A DNA stretch of 62,948 nt, filler included, from Stramenopiles sp. TOSAG23-6 (GCA_900128565.1; 7 parts of 7 records of this genome joined end to end with filler, not necessarily neighbours in it), one strand, 5' to 3'; positions 58 to 62,837 are shown, counted from the first letter of the whole stretch. Notes: generated from the sequence alone by a model not told the origin. Program-made: numbers and translations.

Positions 58-588
58 ATGAAACTCCGTGTATCCATTTCATCAGATAAATCTGAATCAA
101 AAGCAGAAAATAACCGATGTAAATTTTTTTCTTTAGCTCCACCATACGTTCTAACTTTTACAACCCCAGCAAATTGATTTCGTGTAATGCGGAATTCACT
201 TCCATTTTGAGCAGCTTTGTCCAATAATGCACCATACAATAATTCCAAATCAATGAAACCATGTATTTTGGAAAAATATGTCCAAAAAAAATCTAAAAAA
301 AAATATTAGGTACAAAATTTCGTATGAAAAAAAAAATTCATACAAAAAAAAAAAAAAAATCTAAAAAAAATTATTAGGTACAAAATTTCGTATGAAAAAA
401 AAAAAAAAAAAATAAAATAAAAAAAAAAAACGTACAGGTTTTCTATAAGATGATTTTTTCATAACTTCACATAATGCCATAAGTTCCCGCCATTTCATTT
501 GCCCTGGAATGCCTTTACTTTTCTTCTTTAATAAAAATATATTTTGTTGTTCTTTATTACTCTTAACTACTGTAAATCTTCGCCAATA
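58..588 (-). CDS. EF-hand protein, internal fragment (exons 588-436, 260-58)
   Basis: Removing 261-435 joins ...SYRKP|GFIDLELLY... and reads open to LHRLFSAFDSDLSDEMDTRSF (EF-hand-like loop); continues off the window after another element. Confidence 0.6.
261..435 (-). mobile_element. Non-canonical GT..AT intron with duplicated core (175 nt)
   Basis: GTACG...TACAT, phase 0, two copies of the GTACCTAA core. Confidence 0.75.
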
Positions 589-689
589 ATGTATTGTGAA
601 AAATATTTCAAAAAAAAAAAAAAAATTGTTAGGTACAAAATTTCGTATGAAAAATAAATTCGATTTTTTTGTAAAAAAATAAAACATAC
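589..689 (-). mobile_element. GT..AT family element (101 nt), flanks in discordant phase
   Basis: Full consensus; donor phase 2 in kinase, long downstream open frame is phase 0. Confidence 0.7.
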
Positions 690-2812: not shown

Positions 2813-5758
2813 ATGGCTCACACATCTGAGCAAAGTACAGAATTATGTATCATTTGTGCCGATGATAAAGAGATATTTTCTATTGGTCCGTGTGGGCATC
2901 GTGTTGTTTGTGGAGAGTGCACACTTCGTGCTAGGCATTTGCATAATGATTTTAAGTGTCCCATGTGCAGACAATCTCAACCTTCTGTTATACTAAGTCG
3001 ATCAGCATCTAAAAAGTTTACCGACTTTGAGACTGAAGATATGCCGTTTAATTTGTCTGTATATGGTATGTATTTTGAAACCAAAACTACTTTACAGTTG
3101 TATAAACAGTATATGTCACTACGTTGTCCTCTTTGTGTTAGAGCTGGCTTTGGTGTTCACGCAAACGACAAGGCAAAGTCTAGAGCAAGTAGGGTGTTTT
3201 CTAGTAGATCTGGACTAAAGCAACACGTTTCACAAGAGCATAAAATGTTTTTATGTGATTGTTGTGTATCGGAGCGTAATATTTTTCCTTTTGAACAAAT
3301 GACGTATACGTCAAAAGATTTGAAAAGACATATGAGAGAGGGAGATCTAGCTCTTCCACCTTCGACGTTATATCCTAATGGTATTAATGGTATCGAAGCT
3401 CATCCGTATTGTGAATTTTGTTTACCACGAAAGAAGAATAACAAGTCTTATCTTGGTGTTAATGGTAAAGACGTATTTTTTAATCAAGAATTGCTTGAAG
3501 TGCATATGAAAAGTCACCATCAGAAATGTGAAACTTGTGTACTGATGGGTCACGATATGCAATTTTTTCGAAATGTAGCTTCACTTGTTAGACACTATAA
3601 GAAAGATCATTATGTGTGTCCACACAAAGAGTGCCAAGAAGCCATTCATGTTGTTTTTAGAAGTGAATTTGAATTACGCAAACACTTGTTTAGCTCCCAT
3701 GGAGACAAAGATGCTCGAAGTTTAACTTCTTTATTGTATCAACCTCAACCTTCTTCTCGTCGAAGCCATCAAAATAATCGTCGTAATACTCGTAACTATA
3801 ATTATAATAATTATAATAATAATCATAATAATAATAATAATCATAATAATAATAATAGATCCCGTACATCGGGGAGCACGTTACATTTTAGTGAGAATAC
3901 TAGCAATAATAATTCTATACCAAACAATTCTTCACAAGTAAATTCTACTCAAAATTCTCGAAATTCTACTCAAAATTCTCAAAATATAGTCCACCGTATT
4001 GCTCCTTTATCGAAAGAAGAAATGGAGCAACGAAGTGCTTTATTAGAAAAGCGTATTAAACATATTATGTCTATTAGTGGCGTTGAGCATGTGAATGAAA
4101 AGTATAGCGATTTTCGTAGTCTTTCTCAAAAAGTTGTTCGTGGTGACATCTCTGCAAAACAATATGTTGACGAGTTTTTAGAATGGTTTTTGTATGTTCC
4201 TCAAATTACAGTAAACGTAACAAAGGAACAATGGGATGATGATATATTAGATGTATTTAAAGAACTTGTCGCATTGATTCCCTTGCGATTCAAAGCAACG
4301 TCAGAAGCTATGAGAACAGCCATGTCCGCACGGAAAAAAATATCATTGGATGCGATAAATAGAAAAAATAATCCTTCTCAAAATCATATAAATGAATCAA
4401 AGACCAACAATTATTCAACAAATATAACAAATACAACAAATATGGGACATCGGTTACAACAAGTATATACACGAGATATATCTCACAATGAGCATATCAA
4501 CCCTGTGATTACATCATCTACTGAACATTTTCCATCCTTACCGTGTGTAAAAGATCCTGCTTTAAGTGCTGAATTAGCCAAACGTGAACAAGATGCTTCT
4601 GAAGCAAAAGCAAACGCAAATGCTAAATGGGTTGCATCACACTCAAAAAAAGGTCCACAGTCAAAAGAAGAAAAAACCATCGCTGCTGCTGAAACAATTT
4701 CATCTATTGAAATCGTTGTTGACTCTGCAATTATCGAAGCTAATTTTCAACTTGAAAGACTCTACAGTAATGAAAAATCAAGGGATGACCCATTTTCCTC
4801 AATACCTATTTATACGTTGAAGAAAAGAATTCGTAGCCAACGCAATGCATGGATGATGTTACGACCACCGAAGGAGTTAGGACTTGCTAAAACTGTAGTA
4901 TATAATTGGAATTCTTCGATTAAACAAGCAGAAGATGAACACAAAGAAATGATTGAAAATGAGTCCGAAGGGTTTAGTAAAGTTCAATTAACATCTCATT
5001 TTAAGCTTCTGTTTTCTACCTTTCCTATGCAAGAATTATTTCGACTATTTTCATTTATTAAACTTGCACAAGAAGAAATAATTTTACGTCGTAAAAAATG
5101 TATGTTTTCATCATTAATTTAAAAAAACATTTCGTACCAAATTTTGTACCTAACGAATTTTTTACAAAGAAAAAATATTTTTTCACGATTCATTACTTGA
5201 TGCTGCAACAGCAGCTAAAGAGAGAGCTAATGCCAAACTAAAAGCTCGCGAAGAGGAAAAAATAAAAGTGGCACAAAGTATGTTTTTANTTTTTTTTTTT
5301 TGTATGATTTTTTTTTTATAGGAAATTTTGTACCTAACAATTTTTTTTTTTTTTTTTTGGAAATATTTTTCCAAAATACAAGTGCCAAGAGTAAAAAATG
5401 TAAAAAGAGGGAAATAGTAAAAAAGAGTCAAGATAAAAATACCGATATGAATTTCATAAACCAGTCATTGAATACTGTAAATATTAATCATGGTGCTGTG
5501 AACCAGAATTCAAATACGACAGCTAAGAATGATCAAAGTATAAGTAATAATGGTAATGATGTACATGATATTGTTCCACCCATACCACCTCCAGGTATTG
5601 TTAGTAGGGTTAGGGTTTTCAATCCTCCAGTTTGGCCAAATAATAGTAATAACCCTAACCCTAATGAAAAATCAAGTACGAAGAATACAAAGAAAAAGAA
5701 GAAGAGAGGTAGAAAGAAAAATCTTCTCTTTGCTTCTGGTGGGAGGGGAAATTATTAA
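2813..5758 (+). CDS. ZNF598: RING + C2H2 E3 ubiquitin ligase ZNF598/Hel2 (exons 2813-5099, 5194-5277, 5382-5758)
   Basis: CIIC..CGH..CGEC..CPMC RING, HPYCEFC, C2H2 fingers, EHFPSL, C-terminal KKK..LLF motif; spliced length is a multiple of 3. Confidence 0.85.
5100..5193 (+). mobile_element. Non-canonical GT..AT intron (94 nt)
   Basis: GTATG...TTCAT, phase 1, restores RRKK-L-LDAA frame. Confidence 0.8.
5278..5381 (+). mobile_element. Non-canonical GT..AA intron (104 nt)
   Basis: GTATG...TACAA, phase 1; needed to reach the ZNF598-type C-terminus. Confidence 0.75.
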
Positions 5759-10205: not shown

Positions 10206-10305
10206 NNNNNNNNNNNNNNNNNNNNNNNNNNNNNNNNNNNNNNNNNNNNTTAATTAATTAANNNNNNNNNNNNNNNNNNNNNNNNNNNNNNNNNNNNNNN
10301 NNNNN
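10206..10305. other. Artificial contig spacer N-TTAATTAATTAA-N (also 20509-20608, 30797-30896, 41080-41179, 51326-51425, 61479-61578)
   Basis: Identical 100-nt linker with stops in all six frames, separating contigs of decreasing length. Confidence 0.97.
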
Positions 10306-20508: not shown

Positions 20509-20608
20509 NNNNNNNNNNNNNNNNNNNNNNNNNNNNNNNNNNNNNNNNNNNNTTAATTAATTAANNNNNNNNNNNNNNNNNNNNNNNNNNNNNNNNNNNN
20601 NNNNNNNN

Positions 20609-30467: not shown

Positions 30468-30561
30468 GTATGTTTTATTTTATTTTTTTCAAATTTGATT
30501 TTGTTTTCGTACGAAAGTTTGTACCTAACGATTTAAGAAAAAATATTGTTTTACAATGTAT
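30468..30561 (+). mobile_element. GT..AT family element joining exons of two different genes (94 nt)
   Basis: Donor phase 1, acceptor phase 2 at consensus end CAATGTAT. Confidence 0.7.
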
Positions 30562-30753
30562 GAACCGCCAAGATACTAAAGAAGCTCTTCATGTTGCTCA
30601 TTCACCAAACGCATCAAAACAATGGCCAGGTCCATCAGCTCATTGGGTATATGAAAAGGTGTACAGTGCTTGCAACGAAGATTCCATGCCAGGTGCGAAA
30701 TCAATGATTGACTTTTATCGCTATATTGCACCCAAATTACGTACAACTATCGT
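30562..30753 (+). CDS. Serine carboxypeptidase (S10) internal exon
   Basis: NRQDTKEALHV...W...SMIDFYRYIAPKLRTTIV matches the YLNRxDVxxALHV...SM..Y..L..LRxxxYxGD region. Confidence 0.65.
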
Positions 30754-30796: not shown

Positions 30797-30896
30797 NNNN
30801 NNNNNNNNNNNNNNNNNNNNNNNNNNNNNNNNNNNNNNNNTTAATTAATTAANNNNNNNNNNNNNNNNNNNNNNNNNNNNNNNNNNNNNNNNNNNN

Positions 30897-34572: not shown

Positions 34573-37500
34573 ATGTTCTCAAAGAGTACTGCAAACGACG
34601 TCACGAAAACTTCTAGATTAATAACAATAGAAGAAGATTTTAGAAGTCACGAGGAAGACGTCAGCAGTGTACTGGCAAGTATCACTGATCCAAATATACT
34701 TCGCAGTGTGTGTGTATCTTTATNTACCCAATATCAAGTCCCTATTTGTGTCCTTCGAAGTTTGATTAAACGGGGTATATCTTCCACAAGTTCTACTTTT
34801 CCTAGTTTTGTTGAGAAAGTTCTTCCAACAGAAGATAATGATAATAATAATGATAATAATAATGATAATAATAGGAGTGACCAATCAAAGAGCCTTTTAC
34901 AAAACATTTCATGTAAANCTCNTGAAGGTTCTCCTTTTTGCAACGACAGAAATGAAAATTCTGTTTTGTCTGTTTCCTTAGTAGAAAAAANAANAGAAAA
35001 AAAAAACGAAAGAAATGTCGTTTACTCCGACTTCACTAAAAAAAAAACAATCAATTGACTTTCTCGACTGTCTGAAAGAAACTCCTGAAATCATTCGTTT
35101 ATTTCATGTATGGAGTATGGGTGAACCTAGAATGACGATGAATCGACTNAGAGAATTTTATCATACCATACAAATGGAAACAATTGACATTTCAACGCTT
35201 TCACTCTCAACAAAAGAACGGAAACAAGGTATAAAAATTATGCGTTTCATCTTGCTACTTATCAATAGTACTATCAATTGTGCATTTGAGCCGTCTCATA
35301 GACACGTGTATCAGGATATGAATCAACCTTTAGCTCATTATTTTATATCTACAACTCATAACACATATTTAGAAGGAAATCAGTTGATTTCAAGATCATC
35401 TACTGATGCAATACGTAATGCTTTACTTGCAGGATATCGTGTCATTGAATTAGATTGTTGGGATGGAAATGCTAAACATTTTAAAAACAGCTCAAAATAT
35501 TCAGGCTATTCAGGACCCGTCGTCCGTCATGGTATTTCATTAAATAATTCAATTCCGTTTGAAATAGCTGTTGATGCAGTGTATGCTAATGCTTTTCTGA
35601 CGTCGAAATATCCTCTTATTCTTACTTTAGAAAATCATTGTACAATAGAAAATAGAATTATAATGGCAAAAATATTACGGTCTGTATTGGGATCTTTATT
35701 ATTTATTCCAACAAAAAACTGGATAAATAATCGAAAATTTTCCTCACCATTTTCCTTGAAACATAAAATAATACTACGAATGAAAGTTAATCGGACAATG
35801 CATTTTGAAAAATATGAAAAAAAAAATGTTGGAGGGTTAGGGTTAGGAGGTGTTATAACAGAGTATGGAAATGACACAATGGATAAAAATATTGAAACAA
35901 TTGAACATCTTACATCAGACAAAACATCTAAAAAAGTCGGACAACAAACAACAGAAATTNCTACAGATTCATTTTCAAATATACCAAGTAGCTCTATTCA
36001 GACAAATCATGGGGATAGTTGTACAACGACAACACTACCACCATCAAAATCATTACCAATAACAACAAATAATTCAAATCATGATACAATAGATAGTAGA
36101 CAAATGAATAAGCGATATAAAAATATTGAAGGTTGGTTATATAAAGGTACAGGTGTCAAAAAGAAATTTCGATATTTTGTATTGGATGGTACGACTTTGT
36201 TGTATTATAAAACAGAAATGTGTAAAATTATGAGTGGATATATTTGTCTAGGAAACGCTTCAATAGGAATTATTGATCATAATAATGTACTTAATAGGAC
36301 AAAGATAAATTCTGATATTGCTGTCAAATATTCTTCAAGTACACGAAATAATATAATTTCATCTAGGGTTAGGGGAATGACGACTAAACATTTGACCACT
36401 GAAAAATCTCTTACTTTCACGATAGATTCAATTCGACCTAAACGAAAGACTTATGTACGTTTTCAACATTGATTTTTTTTGATAGATTTTTTTTTTACTA
36501 AGAAACTAAAAAACTAAAAAAACTAAAAAACTAAAAAAAATATATATATATATTTTCACTATACATACTTTAAGTGCACAAAATGAGAAAATATTTTGGG
36601 AATGGATTGATCATATTGCATATACAATAGAGAATTCAATGAATTCCAATAACAAGTTCCTCAAAAATCAAAATTATAAGAAGCAACAAAAACAGGAAAT
36701 ATATAAACAAAAACAACAAAATCATCAACATTTTGATACATTGGAAGAAATACCAATTGTTCCTGAATTAGATGAACTTGCTGCTATTTGGAATGAACCT
36801 TTAAAAAAAGGTCAATTGAATGCAGCAGCAGGTTTGTCACATGCATCATCGTGTTCGTGGGATGAACTAAAATTAGGTAAAATGCGAAGAGCCAATAAAA
36901 AAGGTGTTTTACAATATGCAGAGCGACATTTATTGCGAGTATATCCTGCATTTTTTCGTGTCAATTCGTCTAATTTTAATCCCCAACGTACATTTTTATT
37001 ATTCATTTTAATTTTGCATTTTTTTTTTCATAGAAAATTCTTTATCTAACATTTGTTTTAACTATATAAACATATAATTTCAAAATACATGAATGTGGAC
37101 TTCTGGTGCTCAACTAGTTGCATTAAATCATCAAACAGCAGGGCCAATGACGTCATTAAATCGTGCGAAATTTGCTGATAATGGTGGTTGTGGATTTGTT
37201 TTAAAACCAGAATGGATGAGGAAATCTCCGATTGAATTACCTAAAAAAGGAAAACGAGGTCGTGAAGCATTGCCATGTTCTATTTATCAACGTACTTTAC
37301 GTCTACAGGTTTTAGGTGTTCAGTTGTTTCTTCCTGGATTTTTCAATGGTACAATTAAAACACAAAAAACACAAAATATGTCAAGTGTAGAGGACAATAA
37401 AAACAGAAACATATTGGCAACAACTTCAAAAGTATTTACTATTCAGGTTGAAGTTGTCAGTAAAAAACATGGAAGTTTTAAACAAAGTATTCGATGGGAC

Positions 37501-40827: not shown

Positions 40828-41179
40828 TGATCGATATATCAGCTGACGTGAACTCAACACTGTACCATTTTTTTATACCTGAATCAGATGTGAAAAATCA
40901 AGATTCGTTTTTATAGGTACCCGGTACTATTGAAAAATAAACAAAGTAAGAAACAAAATTATCACTATAATTTTTAAATTTTATTATCCAACACACGGCA
41001 CTTGTTATCATTATACGCTTATAGGCACTGTGGGCTATAAAAACCTTAACTCTAATCTATGCTACTAGAACTTTCATCANNNNNNNNNNNNNNNNNNNNN
41101 NNNNNNNNNNNNNNNNNNNNNNNTTAATTAATTAANNNNNNNNNNNNNNNNNNNNNNNNNNNNNNNNNNNNNNNNNNNN

Positions 41180-42284: not shown

Positions 42285-44233
42285 GAGAGATTGAGTATCA
42301 ATTTTCTTTGTTGTAGATTCTACTGTCGATGTTGTTTTTGTACTATTTTTCTTCATTGGGGATTCTACTGTTAATATTTTTTTAATATCGTTTTTGTTTA
42401 TATTAGCTATGGGTATACTTGGTGATTGACTATCTACGTTTTTCTTCCGCACTGTATCCACTGTACCAAGATCATCATCAGATATCTGCCGAGTACTAGT
42501 ATCTTCAACATCCTCCCTCTTTGCTTCAGCAGAATTTAATATCACACTATTTAATTTTAGTTCATCACTCCCTTTAGATATTTCATCCATTGATACATCT
42601 TCATCTTCTTGAATATCAACAACATTTTCCATCTTTGTTTCATCACAATGTACTATCTCAGTATTTTCCATCTTTGTTTCATCACAATGTACTATCTCAG
42701 CATTTTCCATCTTTGTTTCATCACAATGTACCATCTCAATAGATGCTTCATCGTCAATAGTCTTTGTAGAGGGTTTAATATCACTTAACAAAGTTGTATC
42801 TTGATGCTCATTTGGAATCTTGGGTGGTAATCGCTTTTCATTCACGACATTTATATTTGTTTTATCTTTATCAGAAATTACATCTGGTATAAATTCAGCC
42901 AAGTCATCAGAATCAAAATCATCAAATGACCCATCAAAATCTTCAAATGACTTATTATCACTTTTCATTTCATCTACATTTTCTACTCTCGAAGCAGGTA
43001 TAACTGGCTTCTCCCAGCAAGACTTATGAGTATATATATTGTAATAATACAATTCACCTGATCGAGATATATTTGTCTTCCACCCCTTTGGCAAAGTTTT
43101 ATCTTCCTTTTCTTTCAACATTTTCTGAGTAACATCAACTTTCATTTCATCATTTGATTCGATCTCATTGTGATGACAATTTGGCTGTGGTATTTTTTTT
43201 ACTCGCCGTAGACGTTTGACTTTTACACGAACTTTTTCTTTTGCAAAAATTTGTTGACTACTTTGTTTATGATCTAGTCGAAGGTCTTCTCGATTTACTT
43301 TTTTAACTTTTCTGGCGGCAAATATATCAAACTCTCCACCTTCAAGTCCAGGATCAATTCGTAGGTCATATTTTTCACCACAACTACGGACTTTGGAAAT
43401 ACGAGCATGTATTGTGAATATATATTTTTTTTTACGAAAAAAAATCGTTAGGTACAAAATTTACTATGAAAAAAAAATTGAAATTTATCATGAAAACGTA
43501 TATCGACCCATTTACCTTGAAAAGGACCATCTTTAACTCTTACCTGAACGAAGTTGTTAACAACAAAATGGATCGGATCTTTTTTATGGCTAATGTCTTG
43601 ATTTCCTTCGAGATCGTTTGGATTAGAAAATGATTCTTTGATTTCATAAAGTCGTTCTTCATCGGTATAGTCATCGAATTCTTCATCAGTTGTAGGGTTA
43701 GGGTTATCGAATTCTTCATCAGTTTTTACTTCATCAGTTTTTACTTCATACTCCTGATTTGACTTTTTCAAAATTGAGTCATCTTGTAGAATGTCACCAC
43801 TAGCAGTATCTCCGGGATAAGAAAATACAAGTTGTTTTTCTGTGTCTTTTTTCAACATATTCATTAAATTTGAAACCTCCATATTTTTAACATTGATGTC
43901 ACCAATTGCAACCAGTTGCATACCAGCAAGAACTCCATGAGAATCCAGTATTTGTCCAGGATCTCTGGTCAAACCAATAACTTTTAAACCCGTGCGAGAC
44001 TTCTCGTTGAGTACTTCAAAGTTTACACCTAATCGGCCAGATGCTACAGTAACTTTTACAATATTATTATCAACGTTACCCCAAGCTGAGTCAGTATCTT
44101 CGATGTGTCGATTCATTTCTTTCTCAAATTTGTTGTCAAAGTCACTCCAACGAACACTTTCACTGTTACTCGCATCTTCTAAAAGTTCTGTACTGAGTGT
44201 ATTCACACGATCTGGCTTTTTCAGTTTCTCCAT
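41180..44233 (-). CDS. PDZ + Tudor-like + WW domain protein, 3' end unreliable (exon 44233-43502, then from 43406)
   Basis: GRLGV..GMQLVAIGD (PDZ), GKWVD|ARISKV..YDL, LPKGW..G.LYYYN..T..S.WEKP (WW). Confidence 0.72.
43407..43501 (-). mobile_element. Non-canonical AT..AT intron (95 nt)
   Basis: ATACGTTTTCAT...TACAT, phase 0 on both sides. Confidence 0.78.
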
Positions 44234-51325: not shown

Positions 51326-51425
51326 NNNNNNNNNNNNNNNNNNNNNNNNNNNNNNNNNNNNNNNNNNNNTTAATTAATTAANNNNNNNNNNNNNNNNNNN
51401 NNNNNNNNNNNNNNNNNNNNNNNNN

Positions 51426-51519: not shown

Positions 51520-54500
51520 ATAAAATGTATCCAGATTTTGACCACACACGCCAATGAGTTTATACGTATCGGCATGTCTATTTTTAATATCTTTGAGGAG
51601 GTTTTCTTCATCACATGTATCATCAAACGACATATCATCATCACCGACAGAAAAAGCTGAATCTGAAAAACTAATAATTTCACAATCAATTGTAGCTGTG
51701 ACAATTCGAGCTCTGTTGTAAGCAAAAGAGGCTAATGAAGCAGCAATCTTTCGCACAAAAATCATAGCAAACGGTCTATGCGATTTTTTCAAAATTTCTT
51801 TTAATGTAATTTTCTTTCCACTATTGATTGTAGTAACTGTAGCTTTGTATATTGTGAAAAATATTTTAAATTTATGTGATTTTTGTTAGGTACAAATTTT
51901 CATACGAAAAAAAAATAAATTTGAAATTCATAAGGAAAACATATTTTCAATAATCGATTCGCTTCTTTTTTTAGATTTTTAATATCTTCCTCCATGCTTC
52001 CATCTTTAGGAAACTGCTCATGCATAGCGACCTCTTCCCATTTTATTGTAGAATCAAAATTATTTAAAGCTGATCTTGAACGGTTTCTGCATTTCTGGTC
52101 TTTGACGGAGGAAGATTCTAGCAAGCGATCATACGCAGAGTAGCGATATCTGAGACGATTCATTTTAATCTGATTTTTGACAGATTGATAGTCAGATTTC
52201 TGATACATCAAGGAAGCATGACGAGCGGCAATAACGATGCCTTTCAAAACTTTTCCTACTGCATCATCATTGACATCATCGACATTAGACATTACACATA
52301 GTGCAAAATATGTCAAATGCAACATTCCACTTGCAGGATCTATACGATCTATACGATCTATACTAGATGAATTTACAATTGGTAAAAAAGCCATGTATTG
52401 TGAAAAAATATTTCAAAAAATATTCGTTAGGTACAAAATTTACTACGAAAAAAAAACGAACTTGAAAAAAAAAATAAGACATACATCTCAATGAAATTTT
52501 GATCAAACAATCTATCGACGCATTTTTTTACACCATTACGAAGAATTTGTATTGGTGACTGCGTGACGAGTGTAGAATCACTGTCAATACCAAATGGATT
52601 GGGAGGAGGCGGTCCATATCGTAACACACTTTTATTTTTGACACCCTTTGAATTCGTATGAATTAATAAGCGCCAGGGTTCGCCTGGTAAAACTTCGACA
52701 TCAGCATTATTTCCATTAACTTCTAGAACCTTTGCTTTCAAATATGTTTTATTTATAACATCGCTTCTTGAAATACAAACGCCAACCTGATCACCTACAT
52801 TTAAAGCATCATCAGTATCATTAGTATCAAAACAACGCAATGGGATTTGTCATGTATTTTATTCTAAGTATGTCAAAAAAAGATAAATTGTTAGGTATAA
52901 AATTTAGTACAAAAACCAATATTTGAAAAGAAATGTAGAAAAAAAAATGAAAACGTACTATATATTCTTTTTGACATTTCAGAAATATTTACATTATTTT
53001 CAGAAAACTTCTGACAAATATTCTCCGTGTTTACTGCATCTTGAATATCTGCAGGTGTTAATATGTTTTTTTGTTTTTTTGTTTTTTGTGTTTTTTGTTT
53101 ATTGCAATTGTTTTTGGACGACGGGTACGATGTCGGAGAAACAACTTCGGCGTATTTAAACAGATCGACTTCAACTAAATTAACCTTTGATATAGCTTCA
53201 TTTGTTTTCAGATGTTTGATTGTTTCCTGACTATTTCGAGTTGATATTGTCAGTGGCAATACATCGATAAATGGCGAATTACCTCCAGAACCAGCACAAA
53301 CTTTACGCATAGTTTCTGGTGAGTGATAAGCGCGAAACATCAACTCAAAAGGAACAGGGCGGCCAGCATTAAAAACGCGATAGCCAAACATTCCATTCGA
53401 TTCTACACCATGTAGAATTTGAACTCCATCGAGCTTTCCTTGTAAACCAGATCCCTGCGAATGGAGATAACCTAGATTTAATGGTGTTCTATACAAAGGT
53501 TTATTTCCGACCATGTGCACCAACACAGCAATTTCATTTTTTCCATATTTGTTTCCAGGAAATCGACATATATTGTGAAAAGTATGTTATATTTGAAATT
53601 AAGTTAGATGTAAAATTTGATATAAAGAATAAATTTAGCATTTGAAAATAATCACATACAAGAGTCAAATGTTTTTGGTGCTAAATAATTTCGATCTCCA
53701 GTTGACGCAAGCCCTGTACAACAAGCTTGTTGTAAATGTGTAGCATTTACAAAATCATCCAAAATTGTAGAATCGATTTCATTTTCCAAACTTTTTAGTG
53801 TTTGTACAATATTTTCATGTGATATGACATTCAAATTGTTAAATGTTTTCGCAATGTCGACATGTGAAACTGGCGAAGTTTTTTCACAACCAGAAACATC
53901 GGAATGATATCCCATTTTGGGATGAAATGTTAAATAACGAATTCCACCAAAAGTAGGAGACACAATTTTATCAATCGTTCGACAATCATAGACATCAATG
54001 GCTGTAATAGCAGCACAAAGAAAATCAGTCGCACGAGCTCCAACCCTTATATTTTCTTTTTCAATATCGGTTTTCGGTTCTCGAGTTAGATCACTGGCCG
54101 CAATTGTTGCCTTTTTAAATGCGATATTAGTAATACCATGTAATAAAAAATATATTTCAAAAAGAATAATTGTTAGATATAAAATGTAAAACAATTTACA
54201 CAGATATAATATGTTAGAGAATAAAATACATTTGCAATTAATTTGTGACCCAAATTATTTTTAATGAAATCGTTTCCGGCCGGTGGAAGTGCAGTAGATT
54301 CATCAAGCGAATGGGTATCACGATACATCTGTTCAAGAATACCTCGATCTCGCGGATTATTTGAATATGATCGCATCGTGCAAGAAAACACAGATACATA
54401 TCGTTTCAGACAAAACTCTTGACCACGAAAACGTTCCGGCATTATTTCCTCATGTGCCGATTTGATCTTACTCCAAGTCTCGGCATTTCGTCTATTTTCT

Positions 54501-55987
54501 GGTTGGCCATTTGCTTTTGTATTACTTGCAAAAGCTTTACCGGAACTTAACGACCTACACATATCATCATTGTGATGAAGAATGCGCATTACCATGTTTT
54601 GAATCGTGTCTTCTTCGGTGACATTTAACGCAACCTTTGCTGCATGGGGGAGTTTTGAAATTATGCCATCTAACACATTTTTTACCTCAATAAAGCAGTT
54701 TTTTCCATTTACCAAAAAAAATATTTGAAATCGAATTTTTTTGTTAGGTACAACATTTCGTACAAAAAAAAAATAAATTCCAAAATAATACATTCGAATG
54801 ATGAAACCTACATATCTTCCATGTAAATAAATTTCATCTGGTTGATGCTCATAGAGCAAACCAATGAGGAGAAATAACGACTCCTTGGAAACTTTCGGTA
54901 AATCTGTATGGCCATGAAACGATACCTCAGGTTGCGTGAACTCTCGATTGATGAGTGGCAAACCATGCTTTTCCAAGAGATTCGCAATGTCGCAATAGTT
55001 TATTCCAACACAATCCGCAACATTTTCCAAAAAAAAAGATTCGACAAATTGGGCGTTGGTTTTATTTGGATATGTTGGGTGTTTTGGTAGATATCCTTTG
55101 CCAAAATCAAGACGACGATATGGACATTTTGGATCGAAAGTTCCTGGAGAAATGATATATTGTGAAAAATATTTCAAAAAAAAAGAAAATCGTTAGGTAC
55201 AAATTTTGGTACGAAATTGATACAAAAAAATAGAAATTAAAACGTACGTCCCGTCATCACCATTAGGTTGAGCATTAGTTGCTGCTGCTACATCTGCTGC
55301 TGCTACATCTGCTGCTTTATCTGCTGCTGCTGCTGCTTCATCTGCTGCTGCTGCTGCTTCATCTGCTGCTGCTGCTGCTGCTGCTTTGTCTGCTGCACAT
55401 TTGAGTATTTTTTTATACTCTCTTGAATACCAAGATTTGGCATCGTTAATTACATGATGGGCTTTAGCTGATGATTTTAAAATGCACTTGCCTAGGCTGT
55501 TCACATGCAAGTGATCCATGATTCTTTTTATCAATTTATCACCGTGTGTGATATTGCAGATTGCATGTCCAATAATTAATGGAACGACTTCATCACCAAA
55601 TGTCGTGTACATGTTGAATTCTTTAACTCCTCTTTTAATGCACAATTCACGACCAATATTAATCAGATAGGTTCTGAAAAACCCGTTTGTTCCAATGGCG
55701 ACACCACCAATGACCTCAGTTTGAAGTTCTTTGACATCTTCCTGGATCGTATTGCACAAATTAGATGCAATGGTTTCAGCGGTTTCTTCGTCAATATCAT
55801 CCAAAGAGGACAATTTCAACTTTAGAGTTTCCTCTGCGTGTTGATTTGATAAATAGCTCCTACCAACATCAGTCAGTAATGTTTCCAAACCAAAATTTTC
55901 ATCGAGTATCGCATCTCGAATATCATTAGCATTATCCATATTGGAAAGTGATCGTTTAACTAAATCATTGATTGTTGATTCGGTCAT
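51520..55987 (-). CDS. Large hypothetical protein, at least 1263 codons in 8 exons, 3' truncated
   Basis: Exons 55987-55248, 55154-54812, 54706-54230, 54137-53660, 53567-52959, 52851-52485, 52392-51945, 51846-51520 stay in one frame after removing seven elements. Confidence 0.75.
51847..51944 (-). mobile_element. Family member with AT..AC termini (98 nt)
   Basis: ATATGTTTT...CAATATAC, phase 0 on both sides. Confidence 0.75.
52393..52484 (-). mobile_element. Non-canonical GT..AT intron (92 nt)
   Basis: Phase 2, FIE-M-AFLP. Confidence 0.82.
52852..52958 (-). mobile_element. Non-canonical GT..AT intron (107 nt)
   Basis: Phase 1; shifting both ends by -1 or -2 creates TGA/TAA. Confidence 0.82.
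53568..53659 (-). mobile_element. Diverged GT..AT intron (92 nt)
   Basis: GTATGT...ATCTAAC...TATAT, phase 1. Confidence 0.78.
54138..54229 (-). mobile_element. Diverged GT..AT intron (92 nt)
   Basis: GTATTT...ATCTAAC...TACAT, phase 0. Confidence 0.78.
54707..54811 (-). mobile_element. GT..AT intron (105 nt, in frame)
   Basis: GTAGGT...GTACCTAAC...TAAAT; boundaries from consensus only. Confidence 0.65.
55155..55247 (-). mobile_element. Non-canonical GT..AT intron (93 nt)
   Basis: GTACG...TATAT, phase 2. Confidence 0.82.
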
Positions 55988-56719: not shown

Positions 56720-57037
56720 AAATATTTCGTAGATAATATTGTACCTAACGATTTTCGATTAAAAACGATTTTTGATTAAAAAAAAAAAAAAAATTTTGAA
56801 AAATTTATTACATTCCATATTTTTTGTTGTTTTTCAATTACAATTACGTAGGATATTTTTCTTATTACATATTATATTAGAAATTATATTGTTTATCATG
56901 TGTATCATCACTAAAATACGAAAAAATGTTCAAAAATTGTCAAAAATATTTCGTAGATAATATTGTACCTAACGATTTTCGATTAAAAACGATTTTTGAT
57001 TAAAAAAAAAAAAAAATTTTGAAAAATTTATTACATT
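56720..57037 (+). repeat. ~95-bp direct repeat carrying the family core (about 56720-56815 and 56943-57037)
   Basis: TTCGTAGATAATATTGTACCTAAC...TTACAT twice, outside recognisable genes. Confidence 0.75.
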
Positions 57038-58649: not shown

Positions 58650-59975
58650 TTATTGGCCAAGAGAGGATATTATATCACGATCTTTTTCTCTTAATGATTC
58701 AATGTGGTGATATGGTGGTAGGTTTACAGCTACTCGTTCATCTTCATGAGGCCAGCCTATGGTAAAATGGTAGACATCCGTCCAGTCAGTAGCACCTACT
58801 TTAAGTAATGCTTGTACCCATGGTGCAAAGAAGCAACCAATACCTGTTGCTTGAAGTCCAGTGCTTTTACCTGCTGCACCAGCTGCTAGATATAGTGCAC
58901 CACCTAGTGCACAGCTTTCCCAGTGTGCCCGTTTATACCACCACGCACCATATTTTTCAAGCGTTTGAATGTACTCTGCTAGAAAAACAACAGCAAATGC
59001 AGAATCTGATGCAATATCTTGGACACACGATCCTAATTTCGCTTCCTCTGTAAAATCACCCCTTTTTAACAAGACAAAGGGTATATCGGACGGGGTATCT
59101 GGGAGAGTATCCCATAGAAAGTTATTTTCTTTGTCAATTTGTGGTTTCAATGTCTCACAAGTTTTTCCTCTACATAAAATGTAAATTCCGGATGGAACAT
59201 TTGCAACACGGTGTACAAAAAACACTGGTTGAACTTTAGGTGTCCATGGAAACCACATTGGTTGGTGTATCATTCGACGAAGAATATCATAAAATAAATG
59301 AGATGGTAATCCATTTGTTGGTGCTGCATCTGCGTTATAACTTTGTGCACTTCGACGAGTGTGTATAAGATGCCGTATTGACAATGGACTTGAAGTCCAT
59401 ATTTTGTGTATACTACGTAAAGGTTTTTCATTATTCCAAAACGTTACTGGAACTAAAGTAGTCCGTCGACTGGCTTCTCGTGCAGCTGCAATAATAGGTC
59501 TAGCATCTGCTTCAGATTTACCATAGTACGAAATAATTGGAGTTGCGTGATATTTGGGTAGAGGTTCACCATGCCAAAAAGAACCACCCGTTGAAAAAGA
59601 CTGCCACCATTTTAATGGTGATTCTTTATCTTTAGTGTTATTATTTTTAGTGTTATTTTTAGTACTACTACTACTACTATTAGTATTATCTTTAGTACTA
59701 CTACTATTACTATTAGTATTATCTTTAGTACTACTATTACTATTAGTATTATCTTTAGTACTACTACTGCTATCTTTAGTACTACTACTACTAGGGAAAA
59801 CTGCAAAAATACATACTGGTTCTTCGGGTTTGTCGACACGTACAAAATCTAAAAGTTCAGAATCTATCATTGAATCAAGTAAAACTAGAGATAAATTTTG
59901 TGTCGCTGCACTAAAAGCAAATGACGAAAGTAAGTGACCAACATCATGATGTGTATATCTAAATCCAGGATCACC
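58650..59975 (-). CDS. SagB/nitroreductase-family protein, last exon
   Basis: G..GFRYTHHDVGH, IHTRRSA, FVHRV..V..GIY, SCVQDIASD.AF, ATGIGCFF, YHFTIG. Confidence 0.8.
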   Translation of the reverse strand, partial: GDPGFRYTHHDVGHLLSSFAFSAATQNLSLVLLDSMIDSELLDFVRVDKPEEPVCIFAVFPSSSSTKDSSSSTKDNTNSNSSTKDNTNSNSSSTKDNTNSSSSSTKNNTKNNNTKDKESPLKWWQSFSTGGSFWHGEPLPKYHATPIISYYGKSEADARPIIAAAREASRRTTLVPVTFWNNEKPLRSIHKIWTSSPLSIRHLIHTRRSAQSYNADAAPTNGLPSHLFYDILRRMIHQPMWFPWTPKVQPVFFVHRVANVPSGIYILCRGKTCETLKPQIDKENNFLWDTLPDTPSDIPFVLLKRGDFTEEAKLGSCVQDIASDSAFAVVFLAEYIQTLEKYGAWWYKRAHWESCALGGALYLAAGAAGKSTGLQATGIGCFFAPWVQALLKVGATDWTDVYHFTIGWPHEDERVAVNLPPYHHIESLREKDRDIISSLGQ

Positions 59976-60063
59976 ATGTAATTTAGAAAAATATTTCAAA
60001 AAAAAAAACGTTAGGTACAGAAGTTCGTACTAAAAAAAATGCAATTCATGAAATATAACTTGC
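59976..60063 (-). mobile_element. Family element joining a DNase I exon to a nitroreductase exon
   Basis: GCAAGT (or GT at 60059)...GTACCTAAC...TACAT; phases discordant. Confidence 0.65.
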
Positions 60064-61478: not shown

Positions 61479-61578
61479 NNNNNNNNNNNNNNNNNNNNNN
61501 NNNNNNNNNNNNNNNNNNNNNNTTAATTAATTAANNNNNNNNNNNNNNNNNNNNNNNNNNNNNNNNNNNNNNNNNNNN

Positions 61579-61632: not shown

Positions 61633-62837
61633 AAACTCTACTAGCTGATAGAATTGCTAGATTTGATGGACATATATTAGCTATGGTTCTTCAAACCCGT
61701 TTTAGAGACTTTGCAGTTGCAATTGCAAAGGGTATTTTGTTCAGGTCTTTCCTCGCTGTATTTGATGCGGGTACAATTTCATGATGAATTTCGAATTTAT
61801 TTTGTTTTCGTACGAAATGTTGTACCTAACGATTTGTTTTAACCAAAAGAAAAATATTTTTTTCACAATTCATGAATTTCTCGACACAAATGGTATCTCA
61901 ATTTAGAATGGCGAAAACGTCTGAGACATTATTTGATGAATTTATATTTTACCACAGACAACTTTTTTGTTATTAAAAATAAGGACTCGAGGATTGATGA
62001 CCCTCAAAATCGAATTACGGAACAAGTAGAGCAACTTTCTATAGTGATAACCGATCTTTGGACATCTTTATTGCGACCGTCATTTGATATTTGTTTCAAT
62101 TCCTTCATGTACGCTTCATTTTCATTTTCATTATGATTTTTTTTTTTGTTTTCATTTTCATTATGATTTTTTTTTTTTTTTCATTTTCATTAGGATTTTC
62201 ATTTTCATTTTTTTTTTTTTTGGTATGATGTTTTCATAGTAAAACAAAAATGATTTTGTTTTGTTTTTTGACATGGACGTGCTCGTTATTATTTGTATTT
62301 TTCTTTTAATGATTTTTTGTTAGTTGTCGATATTCACCATTACTTTCAAATTTTGTTTTCATATGAAATTTTGTACTACACCGAAAGTTTTCAAAAAAAA
62401 TTGTTTTTTTTATTAGGTACAAAATTTCGTACCAAAAAAAAAAAATATCGTACCAACAATTTTGTTTTAAAATATTTTTTTCACAATTTATGCTACTTAG
62501 AGTATTAGGCACATGTGGAGCAACTTATATTTCAGTGTATATGATAGGTGCTGCACTTGTAATGCAAGTATTTGTACCAAATTTTCGTTCTCTTCGAAAG
62601 ATTGAGTTTGATCTCGAAGGTAAATTTCGTTTTGTACATTCTCGATTACTTCAACACACAGAGTCCGTAGCATTTTTTGGTGGTGGTGCCGTTGAAGAAC
62701 GTATTTGCAATTCTCGTTTTGATGATCTTGCTAATCATATCGAAACGTCCCAATTACAAAAATTACGATTTAACATATTCAATAATTTTATAATAAGGCG
62801 TACTCCTGATGTTATGGCATTTTATCTTCGTATGTAT
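61633..62837 (+). CDS. ABCD: Peroxisomal ABCD-family transporter, internal exons 61633-61770, 61874-62108, 62492-62837
   Basis: DRIA..G, L.LEWRKRL, DDPQNRITE, LEGKFRFVHSRL..H.ESVAFFGGGAVE (EAA-like motif). Confidence 0.85.
61771..61873 (+). mobile_element. Non-canonical GT..AT intron (103 nt)
   Basis: GTACA...TTCAT, phase 1; a -1 shift gives TGA. Confidence 0.85.
62109..62491 (+). mobile_element. Expanded GT..AT intron (383 nt) with nested and inverted cores
   Basis: Phase 2, NSF-M-LLRV; inverted core at about 62411-62432. Confidence 0.78.

Follow-up and report, generated by a model that had tools for sequence, protein, structure and literature searches.

Within a genome stretch of Stramenopiles sp. 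TOSAG23-6 (GCA_900128565.1) we found an intron-like element of 98 nt which, judged by sequence comparison, belongs to a highly repeated intron family of this AT-rich microbial eukaryote. With cut points that we infer from the family alignment, this copy seems to run from AT to AC where its relatives run from GT to AT. The stretch analysed (the window) comprises 62,948 nt and consists of 7 record parts that are joined with filler. The AT..AC element, called the focal copy in the following, is a single case, and as far as sequence comparison can tell the larger result is the GT-AT family to which it belongs. In our preferred reading, to which we assign a probability of roughly 0.55, the focal copy is a diverged family copy that would be removed, at the aligned cut positions, by the U2-type spliceosome presumed to act on the GT..AT copies as well.

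Read in 5' to 3' direction (51944 to 51847), the focal copy starts with ATATGTTTT and ends with TTTTTCACAATATAC (TATAC); its parts are collected in Table 1 together with the other family copies discussed below. It is flanked by open frames of 156 codons upstream and 102-112 codons downstream, where the latter number varies with the counting start. Both frames are in phase 0 and sit in DNA of about 31% G+C. By our own arithmetic 156 open codons have a chance of about 3e-6. The junctions that are permitted by the frames include TAC|AAA. An AT..AC intron of 98 nt with phase 0 at both sides had already been proposed here by a first-pass annotation, and sequence and flanking frames agree with it, with the ends being placed by alignment.

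Table 1. Positions of the focal copy, its flanking exons and further family copies in the window.
Feature	Position	Strand	Basis
Focal intron, 98 nt, AT..AC at the family-aligned G1 and last-T positions	51847..51944	-	sequence, frames, alignment, nhmmer E=4.9e-15
Focal donor ATATGTTTT; family consensus GTATGTTTT	51936..51944	-	sequence and family alignment
Focal branch-like box TACCTAAC; presumed branch A at 51886 (39 nt from the intron end)	51885..51892	-	
Focal 3' block TTCACAATATAC; exactly 7 nt from the end of the TTCAC box to the intron end	51847..51858	-	
Upstream exon, 448 nt, last codons ...CGA TTA TTG AAA	51945..52392	-	
Downstream exon, 327 nt = 109 codons, first codons AAA GCT ACA	51520..51846	-	
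Adjacent family intron of the host gene (GT..AT, 92 nt)	52393..52484	-	
Host gene introns, all GT..AT	55247, 54811, 54229-54138, 53659, 52958, 52484	-	
GC-start family copy, truncated at the contig end (51426)	from 51519	-	nhmmer match 51517-51426
Second of the two A-start copies of the window, AT..AT (ATACGT...ATACAT)	43407..43501	-	
Family intron in the phospholipase C gene	36988..37090	+	PI-PLC-Y profile, translations
Copy 5278, AA before GT and AA as last two letters (GT..AA)	5278-5381	+	

The branch-like box of the focal copy, TACCTAAC, occurs 26 times in the window compared to 0.99 expected occurrences, and a number of 26 was reached in 0 of 100 shuffles. When an nhmmer profile made from 13 family copies was run on the window, 36 matches were obtained, with the focal copy being matched over profile positions 2-121. 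Its similarity to the family extends over the whole element, its 3' block aligns without gaps, it lies in sense orientation within a gene and its excision restores the frame; family membership and frame restoration are in this sense directly seen. For the 18 frame-consistent copies we tallied the end letters at the aligned positions. GT..AT was found in 15 copies, and GT..AA (copy 5278), AT..AT (copy 43501) and AT..AC (the focal copy) in one copy each, i.e. the terminal AT is kept in 16 of 18 copies (15 GT..AT and one AT..AT). T2, CTAAC and A(-2) are invariant throughout these 18 copies. Position +1 is occupied by G in 16 and by A in 2 of them, and position +5 by G in 16, by A in 2 and by C in none. 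A TT[CT]A[CA] box is present in 12 of 18 copies and ends 7 nt before the intron end in all 12. The distance from the branch A to the intron end is 33-44 nt over all copies. Branch box and 3' block are separated by T runs, with the focal copy having TTTTT right before CAC. Within the window the family represents the dominant intron class.

For 22 full-length copies we further asked whether their flanking frames are restored by the aligned 3' end, where the chance of a fit is 1/3. The automated test provided a fit for 17 copies. One more copy (48297), with a downstream exon of just 39 nt, was found to fit by hand reading, copy 48821 gave no call, and the copies 30468, 60063 and 689 failed. Two of the latter, located at 30468-30570 (+) and 583-689 (-), start with GT and have their aligned AT end one base off the frame-permitted junction; this misfit may be due to a draft-assembly indel or to other cut points. 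The third one at 59970-60063 (-) is a GC-start copy (GCAAGT) with flanking frames of 205 and 425 codons that misfit its ...ACAT end. Here the frames permit the ends ...TTAC or ...ACATG, and the copy may have another register or an assembly indel. For the phospholipase C gene, the PI-PLC-Y profile places the end of the upstream exon at position 72 and the start of the downstream exon at position 74. Exactly one split codon is absent, such that this intron must be exactly 103 nt long. Shifts of its cuts by -1 and -2 create a TGA (hand reading), which rules out an AC-ending register at this junction.

The gene that hosts the focal copy occupies the minus strand between about 56000 and 51426, where the contig ends. 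It comprises about 1,300 or more codons in at least 9 exons and contains at least 8 family introns. One of them, a 92-nt GT..AT intron at 54138-54229 (-), has GTATTT as donor, ATATCTAAC as box and TTACAT at its end. It was missed by the exact-motif search and connects, in phase 0, two overlapping ORFs (54173-55192 and 53652-54254). Word-based searches (longer and near lengths) provided no homologues of the host exons at E <= 0.001, and a full HMMER search of 1.84 billion representative proteins provided none for the host exon that was tested. Pfam gave nothing above threshold for seven host exons, with ATG19 (E=0.041) being below the cut-off. By these searches the host gene is a lineage-specific orphan. 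The window as a whole is eukaryotic in content (kinases, RCC1, UTP6, phospholipase C) and has a G+C content of about 26-42%. Its contigs are joined at 10206-10305, 20509-20608, 30797-30896, 41080-41179, 51326-51425 and 61479-61578, and the joins are written as 44 N + TTAATTAATTAA + 44 N. The contig ends at 10206, 10306, 51426 and 61579 are located inside family copies, which indicates that the assembly breaks at the repeat.

The flanking frames fix the length of the focal intron alone. Moving both ends by an equal number of bases leaves the frame intact, so that the register depends on the family alignment. It is supported by the donor, where focal ATATGT aligns with GTATGT of the family, by the 3' block, where focal CACAATATAC aligns gap-free with CACAATATAT in copy 55247, and by the intron end, which is found exactly 7 nt past the TTCAC box as in 12 of 12 boxed copies. 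The positional match of both ends is thus directly seen, and in the focal copy the aligned donor and the aligned 3' position enclose 98 nt in phase 0, as required. A register matrix made from the 17 other copies yielded +14.5 bits for the AT..AC register (shift 0), -11.0 bits for AA..AT (shift -2), -16.7 bits for AT..AA (shift +2) and -29.8 bits for GT..AG (shift +4). The matrix was derived from the same alignment, such that these scores are not independent of the alignment argument. At the 5' end the focal copy scored 9.9 bits, with the leave-one-out range of the family being -2.6 to 16.5 bits. Between branch box and intron end, an internal AG is bypassed in 5 of 18 copies and 4-7 AT dinucleotides are bypassed in all of them. 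The machinery would therefore take neither the first AG nor the first AT.

Two of the shifted registers would lead to different proteins and have to be weighed against the aligned one. If the G1-to-A change had disabled the family donor, the canonical pair GT(51940)..AG(51843) might be used instead, which corresponds to a shift of +4, again removes 98 nt and gives ...LLKI|STVTT. This pair preserves the frame, and among 22 copies none but the focal one has AG at exon positions +3/+4 (hand reading), but an AG at this place is expected by chance in about 1/16 of the copies. Moreover, the donor GTTTTC at 51940 lacks A3 and G5 of the family, the register receives -29.8 bits where AT..AC receives +14.5 bits, and the skipping of an internal AG by 5 of 18 copies argues that AG is not what the machinery seeks. 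We consider the use of this pair highly improbable. With both cuts moved by -2, the intron would read AAATATG...CACAATAT with AA..AT ends, and the protein ...LL N KATV. Such an intron is in frame as well, obtains the second-best score and keeps the terminal AT of 16 of 18 copies. Its 5' cut, however, is placed 2 nt off the family-aligned ATATGT and its 3' cut 5 nt past the TTCAC box instead of the 7 nt in the 12 of 18 boxed copies, and at the phospholipase C junction a shift of this size meets the stop described above. This register appears improbable. A register with TA..CA ends would yield an mRNA identical to that of the AT..AC register.

Judged by its motifs, the focal copy most likely uses the ordinary (major, U2-type) splicing machinery. 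The focal donor ATATGT matches GTATGT at 5 of 6 positions and the branch box is TACTAAC-like. Apart from its first letter the donor is thus the good match to a major-type 5' site that is typical for type II AT-AC introns (5 of 6 positions; 9.9 bits), and an AT start and an AC end are placed by frame and alignment, with equal shifts being also in frame. Motifs of U12-type introns are less well matched. For the 5' motif RTATCCTT with C at +5/+6 the focal donor reads ATATGTTT, for the branch motif TCCTTRAC at 8-30 nt the focal TACCTAAC agrees at 6 of 8 positions (hand reading) with its A being 39 nt out, and in place of a region with no obvious pyrimidine tract T runs are present. RTATCCTT occurs 7 times in the window compared to 4.9 expected occurrences and TCCTTRAC 2 times compared to 3.7, both being at chance level, and Rfam provided 0 snRNA matches within the window. 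The first-pass annotation had pointed to the absence of the diagnostic CC at +5/+6. This holds, since GT occupies these positions and C at +5 is found in 0 of 18 copies. It had also left the choice between a relaxed major and a remodelled minor spliceosome, of which donor, +5 position, branch distance and T runs favour the major one.

A remodelled minor (U12-like) spliceosome that removes the whole family including the focal copy, after an expansion by mobile elements as in Physarum, would account for the purine (G or A) at +1, for the long and highly constrained 5' and branch motifs, which are U12-like, and for the ungapped 6 of 8 match between TACCTAAC and TCCTTAAC (hand reading). Transposon-like U12 introns are described for Physarum, where the U12 snRNA was altered together with the branch motif and where the end pairs comprise 29% AT-AG, 27% AT-AA, 17% GT-AT and 8% AT-AT (10.1101/2020.10.12.336362). 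The distances of the family disagree with such a machinery: the branch A is 33-44 nt out, compared to the range of 8-30 nt from the 3' end in which Sheth et al. searched U12 branch sites (PMC1557818) and to the 9-12 nt from the end for the Physarum U12 branch motif TTTGA (10.1101/2020.10.12.336362). T runs fill the region from box to end in the family, while U12-type introns are described as having no obvious pyrimidine tract (PMC1557818). The GT at +5/+6, the lack of C at +5 in all 18 copies, the chance-level occurrence of RTATCCTT and TCCTTRAC in the window and the position of the family as its dominant intron class speak against a minor spliceosome too, as does the family donor, which is the yeast-type U2 consensus. 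Removal by a minor spliceosome is thus very unlikely. It could also be that the focal copy is unspliced or poorly spliced, either since the intron was disabled recently, within an orphan gene that is decaying, or due to an assembly or amplification error in one of the odd end letters. This would agree with a host protein that has neither a homologue in the searches nor a Pfam domain, with a draft assembly that contains many single N and contig joins, such that a base error at one end is possible, and with the failure of 3 of 22 family copies in the frame test. However, open frames of 156 and 102-112 codons flank the copy at about 31% G+C, the host gene has at least 6 further frame-consistent family introns, and to derive the focal ends from a GT..AT copy errors at both exact ends are needed. 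We regard a loss of splicing or a sequence error as improbable.

A nonconventional intron of the euglenid type, in which the ends are joined by RNA structure, was also considered and rejected, as no stable structure that pairs the ends was found. The focal copy folds with -6.8 kcal/mol (z = -0.05), and the consensus structure of the family has -0.71 kcal/mol and 4 pairs, none of them at the ends. A pairing of positions 1-4 with -3 to -6 was dismissed as well, since copies with C at +4 retain A at -6 (hand reading).

According to the preferred reading of removal by the U2-type spliceosome, the focal copy would be a moderately diverged, sense-oriented member of a high-copy, introner-like intron family. 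It appears to lie in a long lineage-specific gene, from which it would have to leave as exactly 98 nt in order to join two long frames. Its internal signals seem to be yeast-type and major-like, consisting of an RTAYGT donor, the TACCTAAC branch box, T runs and a 3' block with A(-2). Changes of G1 to A and of the last T to C relative to sisters such as 55247 (GT...CACAATATAT) would have produced the focal copy. The spliceosome that removes the GT..AT copies would presumably remove it by cutting at the aligned positions, and the 3' cut is apparently set by position (7 nt past TTCAC, 33-44 nt past the branch A) rather than by the first matching dinucleotide. The focal copy may thus be the family's equivalent of a U2-type ('type II') AT-AC intron.

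The terminal A..C had initially been regarded as the pair that can substitute for G..G. The aligned family ends are, however, G..T in 15 of 18 copies. With G..T as the default pair of the family, A..C replaces G..T and not G..G. Compared to sisters that end with ATATAT, such as 55247, the focal copy carries two transitions, one from G to A at position 1 and one from T to C at the last position. In U2-type introns of yeast and human, a G1-to-A change is rescued in the second step by a change of the last G to C (PMC1557818). By analogy, the second splicing step in this organism might pair the first G with a final U instead of a final G, with the AT..AC copy being a natural compensated variant. 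We consider this idea attractive but rather unlikely. Since an A-C wobble pair would presumably have the same shape as a G-U pair, a retained contact between first and last letter would be an appealing interpretation. If true, first and last letters would still recognise each other and the 3' rule would have changed from YAG to YAU. The window contains 2 A-start copies, one with a final C and the other one (43501) with a final T at the aligned position. The latter suggests that A1 may not need a final C, as it reads AT..AT. Its upstream exon ends with AT, however, such that an ATAT..AC intron with the cuts moved by -2 would also give A..C and yield an identical mRNA. By our arithmetic a single final C lands by chance in one of two A-start copies with 2/18, and the co-occurrence of A and C could be chance.

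With U2-type AT-AC introns, of which SpliceRack contains 24 among 610,067 introns, e.g. in human SCN4A and SCN5A (Sheth et al. 2006, PMC1557818), the focal copy shares the probable AT and AC ends, a donor that otherwise follows the major consensus and a presumed branch point far from the 3' end. It differs from them in that the default of its family is GT..AT and not GT..AG, so that A..C replaces G..T, and in that it is a copy of a repeated element and not an old conserved intron. Resemblance to U12-type introns is seen at the positions +1 (purine), +2 (T), +3 (A), +4 (T) and +7 to +9 (T) and in the long constrained motifs (PMC1557818, Table 2) as well as in the tolerance of AT, AC and AA 3' ends, and to the Physarum U12-type introns in a possibly transposon-like origin and the large numbers (10.1101/2020.10.12.336362). 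Unlike in U12-type introns, +5/+6 is GT and not CC/CT, the box is 33-44 nt and not 8-30 nt (Physarum 9-12 nt) from the end, and T runs are present. The non-canonical introns of the tunicate Fritillaria mostly escape GT/AG and are nonetheless removed by the major spliceosome, and the authors discuss how they may relate to introner-type transposons whose splice sites are weak (PMC13326754). Here the lineage is another one, and a strong donor is combined with a strong branch box, so that the deviation is confined to the last letter. With introners, the intron-generating repeats of Micromonas, Aureococcus and others (PMC9860276, PMC12130899), the family has in common that many near-identical copies of about 100 nt occur in sense orientation in unrelated genes. 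Contig breaks inside copies, short GTAT...ATAC inverted repeats and AT-ending upstream exons in 8 of 18 copies may be further introner-like traits of the family. To our knowledge, published introners splice at GT-AG. The present family differs from these by its AT end and the focal copy by its AC end.

In a limited literature check we found no paper on a repeated GT-AT or AT-AC intron family in a marine protist, and in a paper on single-cell stramenopile genomes (PMC5778133) the word 'splice' occurs 0 times. Should the ends be confirmed, the focal copy would represent a natural two-letter swap from G..U to A..C within near-identical introns. It would then test the pairing between first and last letter in a spliceosome for which AT suffices at a place where almost every eukaryote needs AG. 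Gene prediction for this organism would be affected as well, since standard models cannot remove GT..AT or AT..AC introns.

We also searched for related sequences elsewhere. No look-alike of the focal stretch was found in the other genomes compared, and a scan of viral contigs gave 0 matches. A scan of genome contigs with an 18-nt family core gave 4 bacterial matches, which were attributed to chance. A donor-plus-branch scan of metagenomes returned 25 loci, just one of which scored on the family profile, and weakly so (E=0.00087, 12.7 bits), and all of these were taken as chance. Additional DNA of this organism was not detected in the three collections scanned.

Marks of a mobile element are found at the ends of the family copies. 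The ends GTAT...ATAC form a 4-nt inverted repeat. In 8 of 18 copies AT stands at the end of the upstream exon, while a duplication is absent from ten copies. Copy 5278 carries AA on both sides, where AT is common in both places. In the sequence the AA and AT flanks resemble a target-site duplication of 2 nt whose letters depend on the insertion site. For the focal copy, removing the element together with one AA copy would break the frame. A different repeat, with two near-identical copies at 56723-56764 and 56947-56988 (+), is found where the window is richest in AT (25.7% G+C). This repeat shares the TCGTAG...TTGTACCTAAC core but continues into GATTTTCGATTAAAAACGATTTTTGATT and a long A run, with no donor upstream. 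Tandem and head-to-head overlapping partial copies of the intron family with TACCTAAT boxes occur at 255-400 (-) and at 62340-62502 (both strands); these are perhaps nested insertions.
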